Source of the DNA: Podarcis gaigeae
Lineage: Eukaryota
Assembly (NCBI GenBank): GCA_964106915.2
Contig: OZ066922.1
Length of the DNA stretch: 64,000 bases
Direction: 5' to 3' (one strand)
Each line of letters begins with the position of its first letter. Position 1 is the first letter of the stretch. Position numbers and translations under genes: made by a program. This document shows positions 10,152 through 59,472 of the stretch, piece after piece. The notes under the pieces were generated by a model. The model had not been told where the DNA came from. It saw nothing but the letters and a program-made list of their open reading frames with translations, and did no database searches.

Positions 10152-10290
10152 AGGGATTTGAAAGCTTTCTGTCCTTCAGATGTTGCTGGACTCCCAACAC
10201 CCATCAGCTCCAGCCAGCTTGGCCAGTGATCAGGCATGATGGGAGTTGTAGTGTAGCAATGTATGGAGGCCCACAGGTTCTTCACCCCTC
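10152..10290. mobile_element. Palindromic hAT-type MITE, old copy
   Basis: cagatgttgctggactcccaacacccatc..gatgggagttgtagt..tggaggcccacaggtt; same family as 51506. Confidence 0.75.
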
Positions 10291-17122: not shown

Positions 17123-17332
17123 CATGACCTGAGGCAAAAACTGAAACAGGACCGGTCTGTACTAGATAAGAGCTGGCAGTATAGTCCTCATCAGTGTCAG
17201 AGTCCTGAACTGGCTGGATAGCACTAGTACTTAGCAACCATCTTTGGTTGTCATGGAGATTAGGTGATGGAGGAGGGGAATGTAAATGTTCAATAACGGA
17301 TTGACTAGATGAAGAGGATGGCATGGGAGGAC
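17123..17332 (-). CDS. TENM3: Internal (probably cassette) exon of a teneurin, intracellular-domain Pro/Ser-rich segment; best match teneurin-3
   Basis: Minus strand: acceptor ttttttccttag|GT (AG at 17333-17334), 210 nt open frame (G)PPMPSSSSSQSVIEHLHSPPPSPNLHDNQRWLLSTSAIQPVQDSDTDEDYTASSYLVQTGPVSVFASGH, donor CATG|gtaaga (GT at 17121-17122). From recall, the peptide parallels the teneurin-4 insert (SPPPSPPANESQRRLL..DSDSEEEFVPNSFLV) and teneurin-2 (DTNPDEEFSPNSYLL). Phase 1/1 fits insertion at the TENM3 SEN/EQP junction. The paralog call is less certain than the teneurin call. Confidence 0.85.
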
Positions 17333-17379: not shown

Positions 17380-18206
17380 TTGTATGAGTGACAGATCAAA
17401 AAATACTGTTTACATCCTTCAAATTATATCTACTGTATTTATAAAAGTTTAATAAATCATGGTCAAACAAAATGATAGCACATAATGAAAATGTTCATTT
17501 GAAATTCATGATGCTATGGATAGCTTCTGGTATTGACATTGTATATATGATGCTTGTTTTCCTGAACAACTTAGTTTTTAGAACCTAGTTGTACAAAATA
17601 GCAGAACCGGATAATTTAATTATTCAGTTTCACTTTATTTTAATATTAATTTAGAGTTTTAAAACATCTCTGACTGCAAACTTTGACTCAATGGTTCTGC
17701 TCTGGTTTCAGAGACTAAGAATTTGCATAGCCCACTTGCTTTAATCTATTTCTTCTTTATTGTGTCTGTAGAACAGAACAGAGCACTTTGGAATCTGTAA
17801 TCCTGTACAGGACAAACATCAGTATGTTTTACAAATAGACTGCAAGACAGGAAATGACAGGAAGTGAATATGGATTTTATACTAGCAATAGAATACTTTT
17901 TCTTTCCAATATAATACTTTTTGAATGGGGGGGCACCTATACATTTGACAAATCATTTTGCTCAGACTCTTATCTCCTGCATAGACAATGATATTTCCCC
18001 CCTTTAGGCATGAAGAGACTGGCCTAGATTTAAGAAACCTAGAGATCCATTTTCACAAAATTCCATGTTGCTAACATGCATGAATAATTTTTCAGATTTC
18101 ATTGTATAGATAACAATTGATAACTATACACTGATCCAAGCTGAAATCCCACCTTACACATGGACTCATTGATCACATATTCAAATGTCTTACTTATCAA
18201 AGCATG

Positions 18207-18402
18207 TAATTACAGGTAGGTAGCCGTGTTGGTCTGCCGTAGTCAAAACCAAAGAAAAAAAATTCCTTCCAGTAGCACCTTAGAGGCCAACTAAGTTTGT
18301 TATTGGTATGAGCTTTCGTGTGCATGCACACTTCTTCAGTATCTGAATAACAAGCTTAGTTGGTCTCTAAGGTGCTACTGGAAGGATTTTTAAAATTTTG
18401 TT
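18207..18402 (-). mobile_element. Penelope-like element terminus with inverted partial copy; contains hammerhead core
   Basis: 13-bp TSD ttatcaaagcatg (18194-18206, 18403-18415); inverted arms 18264-18304 / 18346-18386; homologous to copies at 33726 and 59230. Confidence 0.8.
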
Positions 18403-18414
18403 TTATCAAAGCAT

Positions 18415-18765
18415 GGTTTAGTGTGACATGAATGAACCATAGCAAGCCTTGGGATCACATGCTTCCTGTCTCCTCCCCCCCCCCCCCCTGTGGCTGCAAG
18501 GAGTTTGGAGGCTTCTATTTTAAGTCACCCAGAGTGACATGTTATCTGGAACTATGATTAATATTAACTATGGCTAGTTCAAATAAGCCAACTAGACAAA
18601 CCACAGTTTAAAGTTGTGTTTTATACTAATTAGAGCAACGTCAACCACAGTTTGTAAGTCCAGATGGCATGACAAATCATAGTTAACCAGAAGTGGAAAT
18701 GAAAGCTTCCGATGTCCTCCTTGCAGATGTATGGAAAGAGGGGAGGAGTATGTGAAGTTTGATCA
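18415..18765. mobile_element. Old inverted-repeat DNA element
   Basis: Degenerate inverted arms (cacatgcttcctgtctcctcccc vs ggggaggagtatgtg; repeated aaccatag/aaccacag/ctatggct motifs). Confidence 0.35.
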
Positions 18766-20738: not shown

Positions 20739-21741
20739 ATATAATAATAATAATTTATTATTTATACCCCGCCCATCCGGCTGGGTTTCACCAGCCACTC
20801 TGGGAGGCTTCCAACAAAATATTAAAATACAATAATCTGTCAAACATTAAAAGCTTCCCTAAGACAGGGCTGTCTTCAGATGTCTTCTAAAAGTCTGGTA
20901 GTTGTTTTTCTCTTTGACATCTGGTTGGATGGCATTCCACAGGGCAGGAGCCACTACCGAGAAGGCCCTCTGCCTGGTTCCCTGTAACTTGGCTTCTCGC
21001 AGCAAGGGAACTGCCAGAAGCCCCTCGGCACTGGACCTCAGTGTCTGGGTGGAACGATGGGGGTGGAGATGCTCCTTCAGGTATACTGGACCGAGGCCGT
21101 TTCGCAGCGGTTCTCAACCTGTGGGTCCTCAGATGTTGTTGGACTACAACTCCCATCACCCCCTGAGCTCTGGCCTTGCTAGCTAGGGGTGATGGGAGTT
21201 CACCAACATTGTAGTTCAACAACATCTGGGGACCCACAAGTTGAGAAAGGCTGGTTTAGGGCTTTAAAGATCAGCACCAACACTTTGAATTGTGCCCGGA
21301 AATGTACTGGGAGCTAATGTAGGTCTTTGAAGACCGGTGTTTTGTGGTCTCGGTGGTTGCTCCCAGGCACCAGTCTAGCTGCCACATTCTGGGTCACCTT
21401 CAAAGGTAGGCCCACATAGAGCGCATTGCGGTACTCCAAGCGAGAGATAACTAAAGCATGCACCACTCTGGTCCGCAGGCCGATAGACAGTCCGCAGGCA
21501 GATAGGGTCTCAGCCTGCGTACCAGATGGAGCTGGTAAACAGCTGCCCTGGACACAGAATTGACCTGTGCTCTATGGACAGCTGTGAGTGCAAAATGACT
21601 CCCAGGCTGCACACCTGGTCCTTCAGGGGCACAGTTACCCCATTCAAGACCAGGGAGTCCTCCACACCTGCCCACCTCCTGTCCCCCCAAAACAGTACTT
21701 CTGTCTTGTCAGGATTCAATCTGTTAGCCACCATCTATCCT
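20739..21741 (-). mobile_element. L2 LINE, 5'-truncated, frameshifted
   Basis: RT C-terminal remnants MVANRLNPDKTEVL, LGVILHSQLS, AQVNSVSRAAVYQLHLVRRLRPYLP; (TTA)n tail at about 20739-20765; possible TSD ccactga (20732-20738, 21742-21748). Confidence 0.9.
21105..21253. mobile_element. Palindromic hAT-type MITE nested in L2
   Basis: Arms cagcggttctcaacctgtgggtcc / ggacccacaagttgagaaaggctg interrupt the L2 at ccgttt|agggc. Confidence 0.85.
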
Positions 21742-22914
21742 CCACTGAGGAGCAGCACAGTTAAGTTCATGGAAAAACTAGTTTTAGTGGTGTGAAATTC
21801 CTAGTTAAATTATTCAACAGTAGGAGACAGCTCAAACTGTGCAATTAAAAGAAGTCTGTGTACGAATTCCCCACAAAGAGAGAATTTTTTTTTTTTAAAT
21901 GTTGTTGTAGCTATTATGGCAACAGCCGCTACCTAGCTAGTACATCATTAAAGGAGGTCAAGTTAAGCAATTTACAATCAAGTATGGCTTTCCTCCAACT
22001 TTAGCAAGTAATTTTGTATGTGACGATCTGAGCTCTAACTAGCATACATTCAGTTAGACTAATCTGGCATACTATTCTTGCTGGGTACTTTTTTGAAAAG
22101 CTAGCAAGCGTAACACATTGCTCTGTGCCAAAGCCAAAGTCTGTATAGCCAGACAGAACTCGGCATGAATCTCAAGTTAAACATAAGGGAATGTTTCAGG
22201 GGGTTGAGATTCATAAAATATTGTTTTCTTGGTGCACAGGCCAGCGAAATCCACAGTCGAAGTTCTTTTGTGAAGCTAAACTGCCTTTAAGCAATGAAGC
22301 AGTATAAAGGAGACAGCCCTTGCATCTTTAGAAAAGCTCCCAGTCCTGGAATCTGGGCAGGGACCCCCTGACTGTTTCCATTCTGAAGGGAGCCAACTCT
22401 TTTTAAAGCTTCCATGCCTAATTATGCACAGCTGCTCCTGATTAAAGCTGAAGCAGGTAGACTCAGTTTTAGGAGATGCTCTCTTAACAGAAAATCACAA
22501 CGGTCCTTTAAAGTCTAACTCTCCTAAATATGAACATCTGATCATGCTTAGCTTTCCCAAATGTCTTTTCAGTTGTATACACACTCCCTTTTGGAATAGT
22601 GAAACAAAAGTGCATTGCTTAGGTCACACTGAAATCAGATTTATTTTATCCTAACAAGACTCCTGTGCTGGGCCTCAGACAAACTCTGCGTGGGCCTGCA
22701 TACAACTATCTGCATCCATGCCCTATTCGTACTTAATTGGAATAATAGAATCAACAGATCAGAAGATGGGGGAAACACAAGAACAATACCATGAACACCT
22801 ACTGATATCAATGGGAAAAACTAAAGTTACTCCACATATTCAAGTACTTCTGGGTGTGGACTTCTCGAGTCTAAATTGAATGGGGGAAACTGGAGTAACA
22901 GCTAAATAATTCTC

Positions 22915-23240
22915 AAATGGGTCTCAAACCGTCCATGAGTGAGGGACTTCCCCTGCGTGCGAAGACAGGCTCTGGTGGATTCAGCAGACGAGAATAATAG
23001 TGGGTTCAATGATCAAGAAGGAAGTTCCTGTAGTTGCTGTAGAGCAGGCATCCCTAAACTTGGCCCTCCAGCTGTTTTGGGACTACAATTACCATCATCC
23101 CTGACCACTGGTCCTGTTAGCTGATGGGAGTTGTAGTCCCAAAACAGCTGGAGGGCCGAGTCTGAGAATGCCTGCTGTAGAGGCAAGTGAGGGGCAGGAG
23201 GGTATCTTTGAGAGAAGAAAAGGCTAAGGAGTAAACTCCA
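22915..23240 (+). mobile_element. Second, internally deleted copy of the RTE 5'-UTR-like element
   Basis: gagtgagggactt..tgcgaagacagg..gatcaagaagg..gtgaggggcag..aaaaggctaaggagtaaac aligns by eye to the reverse complement of 7580-7900. Confidence 0.6.
23045..23174. mobile_element. Palindromic hAT-type MITE
   Basis: Perfect 8-bp TSD ctgtagag (23037-23044, 23175-23182); ends CAGGCAT / ATGCCTG. Confidence 0.9.
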
Positions 23241-33641: not shown

Positions 33642-33705
33642 AAAGCTCATACCAATAACAAACTTAGTTGGTCTCTAAGGTGCTACTGGAAGGAATTTTT
33701 TAAAT
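33642..33705 (+). mobile_element. Penelope-like terminus fragment
   Basis: aaagctcataccaataacaaacttagttggtctctaaggtgctactggaagg; lies outside the TSD of the neighbouring copy. Confidence 0.8.
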
Positions 33706-33725
33706 TATGTTTAGGATTGTGCAGT

Positions 33726-33907
33726 TACAGATAGGTAGCCGTGTTGGTCTGCCATAGTCAAAACAAATTTTTTTTTCCTTCCAGTAGCACCTTAAAGACC
33801 AACTAAGTTAGTTCTTGGTATGAGCTTTCGTGTGCATGCACACTTCTTCAGATACACTGAAACAGAAGTTTCCAGACCCTTCTATAGAAGGGTCTGGAAA
33901 CTTCTGT
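33726..33907 (-). mobile_element. Penelope-like element terminus with short terminal inversion
   Basis: 16-bp duplication tttaggattgtgcagt (33710-33725, 33908-33923); 50-bp palindrome at its 5' junction. Confidence 0.85.
33818..33855 (-). ncRNA. Minimal type I hammerhead ribozyme motif
   Basis: Minus strand GTAT-CTGAAGA-A-GTGTG-CATG-CACAC-GAAA-GC-TC-ATAC: CUGANGA and GAAA boxes, stem II, palindromic AGCT in place of stem III, UH cleavage site, 4-bp stem I. Activity untested. Confidence 0.65.
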
Positions 33908-33973
33908 TTTAGGATTGTGCAGTAAGGCTACAATCCTAGACACACTTTGGAAGCAATCCTATAGCAAGATCTG

Positions 33974-34108
33974 CAGGGATCTTAACCTCGGCTCACCAGA
34001 TGTTTTTCGCCTACAACTCCCATGATCCCTAGCTAGCAGGACCAGTGGTCAGGGATGCTGAGAATTGTAGTCTCAAAACATCTGGAGGGCCGAGGTTGAG
34101 GAAGCCTG
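33974..34108. mobile_element. Palindromic hAT-type MITE
   Basis: aacctcggc..ccagatgtttt..ctacaactcc / aattgtag..aaaacatctggagggccgaggtt; loop agctagcaggaccagtggtc as in 51506. Confidence 0.85.
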
Positions 34109-35839
34109 GGTTAGGATCAGTGGATCTCTGGTTGAGCCAAGTGGTTCCTGGCACAGCTGCGCTATGCTGGCATATCTCTGCTGTTTCAGCTCAGCTGGAA
34201 CCCAGCTGGCTGAGCCAAAGCCAATGGATCTTAAGCCAGCACTAGCCCTGAAAAGGGGGTGTTCTAGAAATGAGGTGGGACCAAAGATAGGGAATTTAGG
34301 GTGGAAATTAAGTCCATTCAGCTACATGATGTGATCTGGCAATCTGTCATAAGTTAAATCAGCAAAAAGGGTGGTGTAACTCAGGCAGCATTTGAAAGAC
34401 TTGTTTCCCTCTGCCAGGCTCTGGCCGCCTCAGCTGGTAGTAGCCACGCTGCCAACGAGAGTTATTTGATGTTACCTTATGCCATCTTAAATTAGATTGG
34501 CTTGCTTTATGCCAGCTTCTTTTATACAGGATTGCTTACTTGGAAGTATGACCATAAACACAGTGAGATTTTCTTTCCAGTAAACATGCATAGCATTGTG
34601 CTGTACAGCCACAGACTAAAACAGCAACAGCAACAGAGATATATATACTGATCTAGTTTTAAAATAAGTGTTTTATACATGCGAATAATCCATATGGTAC
34701 AAGAGCACAACGACTGGCGAAAGAAGAAACAAATACAAAATGCTGGTACAAGCAATCACCAACACACTGATGACTTACAGTTATTTCAACTGAGTATTTC
34801 TGGCTCACTGTAAAATATAGTATCAGTCCTGAAGAGTACAAAGCTTTTTAAAAAAAATAATCTGCAATGGATCATGTATTTATTCCAGTGGAAACATATT
34901 TTATTGCTATATTCCTCTAGAAAAATTGCTTGAAAGAATAAACTATTGCATGCTGTCATTCTTACGTATAATGCGTTATGCTAAAAGTGTCAAATCCTGT
35001 TACAGCATCTGCTTGTGATATTTTTATGGCATAAAGGATCTGTGTTAGGAAACCAACAATTCAAACAGCACTAGTTCATTTTAGAACTAAAAGGTAAACT
35101 ACATTTAAAAGATGGGAGAAATCTAATAGGAAAAACCTACATCTGAGTCTTTCTTAAGATTCATATTTGATTGAATCATGTGTAATTTTACCGTAAGTAA
35201 AATAGCTGTGATTCTGCTTTAGAAAGGCCTAGAATATTCACTGAATAGGACTGTGGAGTTCAAAGAAGGCTGCCAAAGTAAGTATTTTTATGGCTGGAGC
35301 ATTTCCTTAATCATTCCAAAGGAAATAATTTTTCTAGCAGATGTAGCATCAAAACTGGCTATAACTGTCCCTTTTTATTTTTTTAGGCAATCCATCAATC
35401 ACATATTATTGTTTCCACTTAATAATTAACACTGATACCACACTGAGTATCTTATTATAGCAATCATGGACACAATTCAGAGAATCCCTTTACAGCCAGT
35501 TCATTCATTCCCTATTTATTTCCTAGCAGCAGTTTGTTGTCCTGCATTGAAGATTCTGCAACCATTTGTGCAGCACTTGAGTGTGCATCTGCATATCTTC
35601 CATGAAAGAAAGCACAGAAACTTCTTTGCAAACAATCAAACAGAGGTTGCTTGGTATGGTTAGCTGGTCCAAATAAATTACTGTGCAGTACGACATCCAT
35701 AACTTTCAGGTCTAAATGGCTACACTGCCAACAGAACACTGTGAACTGCTAGTGGGGCAGGTAGAAACATTCACACTGATAACAAAATACTATACCTAAG
35801 ATACAAAGAACTCTGTTATATCTCGGCATCAACACTTGC

Positions 35840-51505: not shown

Positions 51506-51641
51506 CAGTGTTTCCCAACCTTGTGCCTCCAGATGTTTTTGGCCTACAACTCCCATCATCCCTAGCTAGCAAGACCAGTGGTCAGGGATGATGGGAGTTG
51601 TAGGCCAAAAACATCTGGAGGCACAAGGTTGGGAAACACTG
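51506..51641. mobile_element. Young palindromic hAT-type MITE
   Basis: Perfect 58-bp arms, 20-nt loop, perfect 8-bp TSD ggttagag (51498-51505, 51642-51649). Confidence 0.95.
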
Positions 51642-54782: not shown

Positions 54783-54995
54783 AGTGCAATCATTTCCCAA
54801 TCTACTCAGAACTGTGCTCAATGGGGCTTACTCACCAAGCAGTGTGTTTAGCTAATTTGGTGCCCTCTAGATGTTGCTGGACTACAAATCCCACCATCCC
54901 TGACTATTGCCCATGTTGGCTGGGTCTGGTGTGAGTTTTAGCCAAACAACATCTGGAGGGCACCACACTGTCTACCCTCAATTTAGGATTATAGC
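54783..54995. mobile_element. ~90-bp MITE-like repeat interrupted by a palindromic hAT-type MITE (about 54850-54980)
   Basis: gtgcaatc..tactcagaa..caatggggcttactc [ggtgccctctagatgttg..caacatctggagggcacc] ttaggattatagc. Confidence 0.65.
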
Positions 54996-56057: not shown

Positions 56058-56700
56058 ACTTTATTTTGGTCATGGGACCATTTTTTTGGTCATTCCTCTT
56101 GTATGAAAAGGAATTGCAGGCCTCTTTACCTCTACCACACATCTTTGCTGGCCATTATGGCAGTTGCTTCAGCACCACTTCTTTTTAAAACAATCTTCTT
56201 CCTGTTGACTACCTGAAGCTAGACAATCAAGAGGTTTCCATGCAGTTTTTTGGTTCTGGGTCTATAATTTAGGTATTTGTGGGCAGATGCTAGTAGGATG
56301 GCCTGGGATGCTAATGCTCACCAAACAACCTAGGAATAAATATCTGAATGTGCATCCCCTTGAAAGCAATGCAGTATAGATAGGCAGTATTTACACTCAG
56401 ATGAACATTTTGATGAACAGTTCATAATACAGTAAGTGACAGTTTCTACATTTTGACCTCCTGAATTGAAATGGGGTGCCTGTCTTGCCATGCTGTGCTG
56501 GAATTTAATGTCCTGCCAATGCAGTGTGTCCTTGGCAATAGGCCAAAGCATGTCCTGCTCCACCACAAACAAGACTGTACCTCTCTAAAAGTCACCAAAG
56601 CATGTGACATGAAAATTTCCACAAAACCTAGGTTCTCACCTAATGAGAAATGGGAAGAAGATAAAATCCTCAAATGCTAAATTCCAACTCCTAGTGATCA

Positions 56701-57353
56701 GGGCCACTGGTCCCATCACCTCCTGGCAAATAGAAGGGGAAGAAATGGAGGCAGTGAGAGATTTCACTTTCTTGGGTTCCTTGATCACTGCAGACGATAA
56801 CAGCAGTCACAAAATTAAAAGACACCTGCTTCTTGGGAGAAAAGTAATGACAAACCTAGACGGCATCTTAAAAAGCAAGAACATCACCTTGCCAACAAAG
56901 GGCTGCATAGTGAAAGCTATGGTTTTCCCAGTAGTGATGTATGGAAGTGAGAGCTGGACCATAAAGAAGGCTGACCGCCAAAGAATTGATGCTTTTGAAT
57001 TATGGTGCTGGAGGAGACTCTTGAGAGTCCCATGGACTGCAAGAAGATCAAACCTATCCATTCTTAAGGAAATCAGCCTTGAGTGCTCACTGGAAGGACA
57101 GACCGTGAAGCTGAGACTCCAGTACTTTGGCCACCTCATGAGAAGAGCAGACTCCCTGGAAAAGACCCTGATGTTGGGAAAGATTGAGGGCACAAGGAGA
57201 AGAGGATGACAGAGTACGAGATGGTTGGACAGTGTTCTCGAAGCTACCAGCATCAGTCTGACCAAACTGTGGGAGGCAGTCGAAGACAGGAGTGCCTGGC
57301 GTGCTCTGGTCCATGGGGTCATGAAGAGTTGGACATGACTAAACAACAGCAAA
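56701..57353 (+). mobile_element. BovB (RTE) LINE, 5'-truncated
   Basis: ATGPITSWQIEGEEMEAVRDFTFLGS..IVKAMVFPVVMYGSESWTIKKADRQRIDAFELWCWRRLLRVPWTARRSN..SLEKTLMLGKIEG; (CAA)n-like tail; TSD agtgatca (56693-56700, 57354-57361). Confidence 0.96.
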
Positions 57354-57479
57354 AGTGATCATTAGATTTTCACACCTGGCAAGTTCAATTCTTACCCTAT
57401 GCTACAGAACAAACACAAACAGGTCTCATTTTCTGAACACCATGTATTTCCACTAAATTGTTAAGTTAGGTGAGCGTTT

Positions 57480-57820: not shown

Positions 57821-59229
57821 GAGTAGGAATTGCCTATCTAATAAATTGCCTTCTGTTTTTTGCTGAACATGAAATAATTTGAAAAATACAAATTTTACTT
57901 TTTAAAAATTCCCTTTATCATATTCTGGACAATAAGCATCCCCATTAAAAATAAATTATTTTATTGGTACCTTCATCTGCGGGGATTTTAAGCAATTCAG
58001 GTTCCCCTGGATTGTGTCACCCTATTTGTTCCTGACTGTCAGAAGCTAAGTAGCTGAAATGGCTTAGTTTCCAGTTGGATGGCGTTTTGTAAAGCATTTC
58101 ATGCACTGGAGGAATCTGGAGTAGACACTAAGACCAATATTAATCTTTGTTGATCGGGAAGAATGCCAGGAGTAGATATTTGAAGACAAGGATTAATATG
58201 GGAATGTAGAAGAAATCCTTCCTTACTCTTAGCCTTTTATTTTAAACAAGAACAGTGGAATCTACAAGACACTGGTGCTCTTACATTTCGGCAGTGCTCC
58301 TTCTGCGTGTCACACTCTTATTACTAATGCCTGTGGTGTCCATGTGTCAGACGAAAAGCTTGTCCTTCTAACGTCTCCATTGTAATGTGGAAACTCCTCT
58401 CTCCACCTAACACATTTGCTAAGGCCACTTTAAAAATAAGTTTCACATAATTTCCAACAGAAATATGGACAGCAGTGAAGCAAGATTCAAGTTAACTAAG
58501 AAGAATAAATAGTTGTAAAGAAAGCAAGTTCTTATGCCCATATCTAGTAGCAGCTAGTCCCAACTTAAGAGAGTAGTATAAATTTAATGCTCAAGGGCTG
58601 GCATCACTGTATGGTTGCTGAAGCTTCTGCACCCACCTCAATTTTCTTCCGTCTACGGTCTCCTGGGGGTTGGAGCTATGACAGCTGCCTGGGTGAAGAA
58701 GAGGAAGCAGTACTGTAGTAGCAAATTCTCCTAGCTGCACTGATCAACTACCTGCTTATAAACCAAGCAAGAACAGCTAGGAGGAATAAATAATGACTGC
58801 CTCTCCACAGGCTACTGATCAGTTGCCCATCCAGTAGCACAAAAGACAGCAGCTTCCATCAAGGATAACTTTGGGGGGGGGAGAGAGAAACTTATGGTGG
58901 TGGCACTTTGCTGCAGGTCCTTTCAAACCTGGAACCAGCCCTGATAATGCTGGTTTTCTGCTAACCATCATGCCATCAGAAGCTGGTAGCAAGAAAATAC
59001 TTAGATCCTCCCCTCCTATAACAAATTCCACCCCATGGAATTCTTAACCCTGCTGTTAAGACATATCAGGAAAGGCCTTGACCAGAGTTGAAGCTATCCA
59101 AGGTATTTGCTTAACCAGGATTTACAATCTTTAACAGGAATAAACAGGTTTCTCATCTTAACCAGACTGAAGTAACTTCAGCTGCAGTCAAGAGAGGCAC
59201 TTGTATAAACATTAACCACTATGTGAAGT

Positions 59230-59363
59230 CAAAACTGAAGAAGTGTGCATGCACACGAAAGCTCATACCAAGAACTGACTTAGTTGGTCTTTAAGGTGCT
59301 ACTGGAAGGAATTTTTTTTGTTTTGACTATGGCAGACCAACACGGCTACCTATCTGTAACTGG
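59230..59363 (+). mobile_element. Penelope-like element terminus with hammerhead core
   Basis: 13-bp TSD cactatgtgaagt (59217-59229, 59364-59376); CTGAAGAAGTGTGCATGCACACGAAAGCTC at 59235-59264. Confidence 0.85.
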
Positions 59364-59472
59364 CACTATGTGAAGTGTATGTTTGTCTAAAAGGGTATGA
59401 GAGAGATGCACCAGGGAAGGCAGAGATTATAAGGAACCTGCAAAAGTACAGGCTTTTCCTAATCTGTTAGGA

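Follow-up and report, generated by a model that had tools for sequence, protein, structure and literature searches.

Minimal hammerhead ribozymes in the pLTRs of Penelope-like elements (PLEs) form a described class whose hosts include turtle and snakes (Cervera and De la Pena 2014, PMC4209133). According to the available part of that report, the single Schistosoma motif is inactive, while dimers and trimers have low activity. The hammerhead of the Anolis element PAc is described in the accessible text of a later study (PMC11167929) as cutting only with protein and as dispensable for insertion in vitro; the same text reports no RNA-seq ends at the hammerhead site. For Xenopus dimer elements, cleavage in one out of nine is given in the available portion of a bioRxiv retrozyme paper (10.64898/2026.07.22.740005), which also covers the vertebrate distribution of Neptune elements. 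Our literature search found no hammerhead described in a teneurin gene.

Here we analyze a motif of this class in the window, i.e., the whole 64-kb stretch of DNA under study, where it lies in a teneurin intron. It is a PLE terminal-repeat hammerhead in a truncated intron stub, and fold predictions together with the anatomy of the locus make it very likely that this copy, whose predicted fold is a closed one, is an inert passenger.

The motif, the insertion that carries it and the host gene

The minus strand from 33855 to 33818 reads GUAU CUGAAGA A GUGUG CAUG CACAC GAAA GC UC^AUAC, exactly as the original prediction gave it. It constitutes a minimal type I hammerhead, an assignment that draws on this sequence and on the 11,151 exact copies of its 34-nt core in the genome (5,575 on the plus and 5,576 on the minus strand). 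The core boxes CUGA-N-GA, GAAA and UH are all present, and the core and stem I are unmutated. Read from the sequence, C3 is 33851 and C17 is 33822. The cut had been predicted after the UC at 33822-33823, which holds as to the dinucleotide: these positions are the U-C pair itself, and the scissile bond is 33822/33821. Stem I has 4 bp and stem II has 5 bp, or 6 if a C-G pair closes a 2-nt loop. The additional nucleotide that follows position 9 and precedes 10.1 is the A at 33844, and the pair G10.1-C11.1 is G33843-C33830. Helix III is absent and positions 15.2-16.2 are palindromic (A-GC-U). Stem II with its loop (33830-33843) is also a perfect palindrome, of 14 nt, which dominates predicted dimer folds and within which several 5' inversions begin.

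A descriptor scan of the window returned four CUGA-N-GA...GAAA candidates with a stem II of at least 3 bp. Three are the same motif, with C3 at 33851 and 18339 on the minus strand and at 59235 on the plus strand; the fourth is weak and unrelated. A helix I of 4-5 bp is present in the 33.8-kb copy and absent from the 18.3-kb and 59.2-kb copies. Taken alone, the 38-mer folds into stems I and II at -6.8 kcal/mol, but 61 of 200 shuffles fold equally well, so the argument for a hammerhead is based on the core boxes and on family membership. The covariance-model search that had been suggested as a check gave no hammerhead match at E<=10 with Rfam models (29 matches for the window and 16 for 33780-33900), and neither Rfam nor folding indicated a canonical monomer fold with helix III. 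The miRNA matches in these scans are hairpin repeats and lie under gathering scores. The predicted PLE origin, minimal type I architecture and AGCU palindrome are borne out by the sequence and the family; judged by its sequence, the motif is a real PLE minimal hammerhead of the already described kind.

The motif is carried by a 182-bp stub (33726-33907), a 5'-truncated pLTR with a tail and a 5' inversion, inserted between exact 16-bp target-site duplications at 33710..33725 (left) and 33908..33923 (right). The truncated pLTR and its tail of ~38 nt occupy 33726..33886 on the minus strand and are recognized by identity to long copies of what appears to be a Neptune-like PLE. Identity to the pLTRs of five long RT+EN copies is 98-99% over 111-112 nt, and a sixth long copy matched too. 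The tail begins with the start of the element's ORF (ATG at 33755-33753, MADQHGYLSV), identical to the ORF start of the full-length copy described below, and ~30 nt of the ORF are retained. On the plus strand, 33883..33907 is an inverted piece of the same pLTR, found by blastn and predicted to fold as part of a 23-bp hairpin. Such 5' inversion is typical of PLE insertions. Reverse transcription would have started in the tail and passed the cut site; a short inversion would mark its end, 35 nt upstream of the core. The differences from three young copies come down to a subfamily position, an A/T tract and at most one other base, and this near-identity argues for a recent origin. The flank of the insertion is itself repeat-like.

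Next to the stub lies an older, separate antisense fragment of the same family (33642..33701, plus strand; 93-94% identity), which starts with AAAGCUC. In the pre-mRNA it is complementary to the 3' half of the hammerhead and is located ~170 nt downstream of the core. Orthologous contigs under three other species labels extend 29-45 nt into this fragment, which is therefore common to those three species labels.

The host gene, identified by Pfam profile search for Ten_N exons, encodes a teneurin and is located on contig C19, minus strand. The one exon inside the window (17123..17332, minus strand; Ten_N 160-225, E 4.4e-11) encodes part of the intracellular domain, is 210 nt long, AG/GT bounded and phase-symmetric, and is a plausible candidate cassette exon. 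The next upstream Ten_N exon is ~128 kb away. In C33, one of the four teneurin paralogues, there is no match to Ten_N segment 160-225 among the matches listed. As had been proposed, the 33.8-kb copy is intronic and sense to teneurin, and the descriptor scan confirms the second same-strand core (C3 at 18339); both copies lie in the same ~128-kb intron, with exon 17332-17123 following 16.5 kb and 1 kb downstream, respectively. The 18.3-kb copy (18210..18339, minus strand) belongs to an older subfamily; its core is intact and it ends at C3, without the 5' strand of stem I. It is accompanied by a 13-bp duplication (18194-18206 / 18403-18415) and a 5' inverted arm (18346..18404, plus strand), and the insertion is predicted to form a hairpin of ~39 bp with the core in the loop. 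A third copy, absent from the original prediction, is antisense to teneurin (59235..59363, plus strand), also ends at C3, and has a 13-bp duplication of its own (59217-59229 / 59364-59376).

The window contains other repeats. Short hairpin repeats, MITE- or SINE-like, make up a second high-copy family; they occur at 33996-34110, 51532-51615, 23065-23154, 10180-10262 and 54869-54954 and give weak scores with the mir-5408 and mir-727 models, under gathering scores. Translations of 56613-57358 and 20859-21795 resemble the ends of non-LTR retrotransposon ORFs, which we take to be RTE/Bov-B-like and L2/CR1-like, respectively.

The element family and the RNA it is copied from

A relaxed minimal-hammerhead pattern has 13,237 matches in the genome compared to 1 for the reversed control, so the motif is not due to chance. 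Among the collected cores, 44 of 57 are identical and the others carry single or double substitutions with no compensatory changes seen; the family is too young for stem covariation among the 57 cores to be informative. Long copies extend upstream into the C-terminus of a GIY-YIG domain. Six of them have frames of 517-706 aa, and both of the frames that were scanned hold RVT_1 and GIY-YIG; the core is located 183-184 nt past the ORF stop in five of the six and 160 nt past it in the sixth. One of eight loci chosen for an N-terminal match, L248 (C17:77539000-77548000), is a full pLTR-ORF-pLTR unit. Its ORF of 910 aa has no stops and contains RVT_1 (E 9.5e-12), with YIDD at 551, and GIY-YIG (E 7.8e-6). 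Each pLTR carries one core; the spacing of the two is 3,010 nt, and the ATG lies 63 nt downstream of the cut site. The two L248 cores are natural dimer partners. In L251, another of the eight loci, our script found no ORF. Among the listed matches to the N-terminal query are four frames of 921, 931, 933 and 966 aa; three copies with frames of this length (921-966 aa), together with L248, suggest that the family may still be active.

The RT-EN linker of L248 contains a CX4CxxC motif (CNKPRCQLC at 770). The CCHH endonuclease motif is CQQC...H...H in L043-L048, with the second Cys replaced by R in L248. Hallmarks of EN+ PLEs are found at both loci: the pLTR tandem in L248, and the 5' inverted truncated copy, tail and target-site duplication in the 33.8-kb stub. 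From these sequence features the family appears to be Neptune-like, Neptune being preferred over Nematis only on vertebrate distribution. An ORF start at the loop II ATG, as in PAc, was considered and rejected: in both young subfamilies that frame is closed by a stop after 9 codons, and MADQH is the start of the long ORF. We also rejected a non-LTR retrozyme, as no tandem array of hammerhead-bearing units occurs in the 18 TRF rows and the stub derives from an autonomous PLE.

Some copies are arranged differently. At C1:5570058-5570133 and C1:3476886-3477112, same-strand cores 42 and 193 nt apart form natural tandem dimers. In ten copies, including L256-L261 (e.g., C1:76208441-76208494), the 5' inversion is joined at a stem I microhomology; they have a long perfect helix I, the anti-core hairpin described below is gone, and the core-opening cost in L077 is 1.0 kcal/mol. 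By their predicted folds, these copies are better candidates for activity than the 33.8-kb copy.

If the ribozyme cut its RNA before insertion, copies beginning at the scissile bond would be expected. Of the 14,669 copies that carry 25 nt after this bond, 164 are without C17. Non-consensus counts at a neighboring A, a neighboring U and a matched C, all of which mix junctions and substitutions, are 79, 72 and 124, respectively (164 vs 124, p = 0.02). The first 30 of the 164 comprise 12 substitutions and 18 junctions, and an inverted piece of the element sits beside 9 of the 18 junctions; 5 of the 10 places with stem-I-joined inversions adjoin G-class copies among those without C17. Stem I microhomology thus explains part of the C17 excess, which could otherwise be a trace of cleaved templates. 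Copies beginning at the scissile bond number about 98, or 0.67% (0.45-0.86%), and with only ~0.7% of copies beginning at the cut site, we rejected the idea that 5' truncation is mainly due to cleavage. Read-through of the site in most copies agrees with templates that were uncut or re-ligated; a re-ligated circular template leaves no ends, so junction counts cannot separate uncut from re-ligated RNA. In the life of the element, the core would, in the absence of helix III, have to dimerize with the second pLTR of a tandem transcript in order to cleave. The element's own protein would probably assist and would need to open the anti-core hairpin, and most insertions would be copied from RNA that is intact across the cut site.

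Folding and the fate of the motif in teneurin RNA

Folds were computed with ViennaRNA, which gives equilibrium folds that ignore kinetics; Mg2+, tertiary contacts and protein were not modelled. The element itself encodes an anti-core hairpin, UUCAG-UGUAU-CUGAA (33847..33861, minus strand), which appears in the folds, is also found in long pLTR copies, and is predicted to hide CUGA together with stem I's 5' strand. In the intact pLTR, UUCAG is located directly upstream of stem I and is complementary to CUGAA. Such a built-in hairpin could explain protein dependence. In the 5' pLTR of L248 the core-opening cost is only 2.0 kcal/mol, so the masking hairpin alone is weak. The corresponding cost at 33.8 kb is 3.7 kcal/mol before the antisense arm and 15.7 kcal/mol after it. 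In folds of the nascent transcript, P(stem I) is <=0.012 at 10 of 10 lengths and the CUGAAGA box is mostly paired with the upstream anti-core segment. The antisense fragment 33642-33701 is predicted to form a duplex of ~54 bp with GAAA-GCUC-AUAC and the sequence that follows, and the unpaired probability of AGCUC is 0.000 once this arm is included. The 321-nt fold at 33.8 kb has -156.5 kcal/mol (z = -18), and the 18.3-kb hairpin has z = -14. In teneurin RNA, then, the core would first pair with the anti-core hairpin, and ~170 nt later GAAA-GCUC-AUAC would zip into the long duplex with the older antisense fragment, leaving no productive partner.

The 33.8-kb core, lacking helix III, needs a partner, and the original prediction proposed that the 18.3-kb copy could play this role in cis, leading to co-transcriptional cleavage of the intron upstream of a cassette exon; in the reading weighed here, this would influence that exon. 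Both cores are indeed exact, sense and in the same intron, the exon is phase-symmetric at 210 nt, and conserved intronic hammerheads of amniotes provide a precedent (PMC6155905, in its available part). In the dimer geometry, stem I is made of the 5' strand from one copy and the 3' strand from its partner. A 4-bp stem I is possible between the 33.8-kb 5' strand and the 18.3-kb 3' strand, but the 5' side of the 18.3-kb copy forms 0 bp with either 3' strand. With the 5' stem I strand missing from that copy, the only site open to a heterodimer is 18310/18309, ~1 kb upstream of the exon, and not 33822. A cis dimer cutting 33822 is thus unsupported on two counts, since the 33.8-kb core is also predicted to be sequestered before its partner is made: its GAAA-GCUC would enter the ~54-bp duplex within ~180 nt of synthesis, whereas the partner follows 15.5 kb later. 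Transcription of 15.5 kb takes minutes of elongation. The intermolecular helix III would have only 4 bp. The double-hammerhead dimer reaches -12.7 (A:A) and -13.8 (A:B) vs MFE values of -36.6 and -34.7, a gap of 18-24 kcal/mol (~21 kcal/mol for the cis dimer), and in the dimer MFE structure the two molecules are joined through a duplex of the 14-nt palindromic stem II. A dimer with swapped stem II was considered as well and rejected by reasoning, as by its geometry it cannot also form helix III.

The spacing of the two cores is likewise at chance level. The genome-wide density predicts a same-strand neighbor within 15.5 kb for 11-13% of cores, and the expected probability that a 128-kb intron holds one or more additional same-strand cores is 38-43%. 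Among the first 100 cores listed, which come from a denser stretch of C1, such a neighbor occurs within 15.5 kb for 28, within 3 kb for 10 and within 300 nt for 4. In a family of more than 11,000 copies, the pairing of the 33.8-kb and 18.3-kb copies is expected by chance; the host gene has two more sense cores, four in all, and three antisense ones. The four teneurin genes, measured from the first Ten_N match (the second segment in C33) to the last-exon domain (1,536,742 bases), contain 8 sense and 10 antisense cores; both stems are present in 4 vs 7, and tail-bearing pieces number 9 vs 8. The 95% CI of the sense share is 0.22-0.69, this small count excluding only a strong bias, and a moderate depletion of sense copies is possible. 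With the core sequestered, the stem I strand lacking, the spacing at chance level, 8 sense against 10 antisense cores and ~0.7% of copies starting at the cut site, regulation by intron cleavage is not supported, and dimerization of the two cores in nascent teneurin RNA is the least probable of the readings considered here, hardly to be credited.

It is also conceivable, though very unlikely, that the 33.8-kb copy is silent alone and is occasionally cut in trans when the element protein is expressed, in the germline or upon de-repression, as a side effect of the transposon without host function. The protein-assisted cleavage of PAc (PMC11167929, available part) would fit this, as would the frames of 921-966 aa in a family that may still be active, the first ~30 nt of the ORF kept in the stub and the small excess of ends at C17. 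However, the same text on PAc states that activity depended on an RNA that includes the initial 172 nt of the ORF, of which the stub has ~30, and the antisense duplex is predicted to remove the cut site. Slightly less probable still is an effect on the host by way of long dsRNA hairpins of inverted fragments (A-to-I editing or dsRNA binding) and not by catalysis. The strongly negative z-scores of both hairpins speak for it; against it, 16.5 kb separate the 33.8-kb hairpin from the exon, and inverted stubs are very common. Just as remote is the broader idea that thousands of sense intronic cores are protein-gated ribozymes, with the ORF protein opening the hairpin and allowing dimer cleavage of host pre-mRNA, so that at the 18.3-kb site, near a skippable exon, transposon activity would be coupled to splicing. 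Were host pre-mRNA cut by intronic copies under control of the protein, thousands of sites would be open to changes in splicing by the transposon.

An inert passenger folded shut thus remains our preferred reading of the 33.8-kb copy, which in itself matters little, being one stub among thousands of a kind already described from reptiles. The family, being young and uniform, with long frames, a ribozyme 63 nt before the ATG and tandem cores at a distance of 3,010 nt, lends itself well to studying the role of PLE hammerheads. Cleavage at both L248 cores would free a unit-length RNA of 3,010 nt that comprises a 63-nt leader and the whole ORF.

Comparison with known systems

The Podarcis motif closely resembles the metazoan PLE hammerheads as described in the available part of PMC4209133. 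They share the type I core without helix III, the palindromic 15.2-16.2, the extra nucleotide after A9, G10.1-C11.1, the 4-bp helix I and the location in the pLTR, as well as thousands of dispersed truncated copies and close opposite-strand pairs. The Podarcis family differs in its very uniform copies, in their number (13,237 vs ~4,000 in coelacanth and ~9,000 in Xenopus) and in the 14-nt palindrome of stem II.

PAc (Poseidon_Ac) of Anolis carolinensis (Frangieh et al. 2024, PMC11167929, available text) is likewise a squamate PLE with a pLTR hammerhead, a tail within the 5' end of the ORF and insertions that come mostly from uncut RNA. It is, however, a Poseidon element whose ORF starts at stem II and whose cut is 26 nt after the ATG, whereas here the cut is 63 nt before it. 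The Podarcis family also differs from PAc in its CX4CxxC RT-EN linker, which is as in Neptune/Nematis. With these EN+ PLEs, as presented in the available part of PMC8557442, it shares a single ORF with RT plus GIY-YIG at the C-terminus, a CX2-5CxxC linker and CCHH, along with partial tandems, 5' inverted copies and a 30-40-bp tail.

The domesticated amniote hammerheads of RECK, DTNB and C10orf118 (PMC6155905 and PMC10761166, available parts) are, like the one described here, type I, sense and intronic. They are canonical, conserved across amniote groups and active in vitro, whereas the 33.8-kb copy is a young transposon stub without helix III that still has its duplication and inversion.
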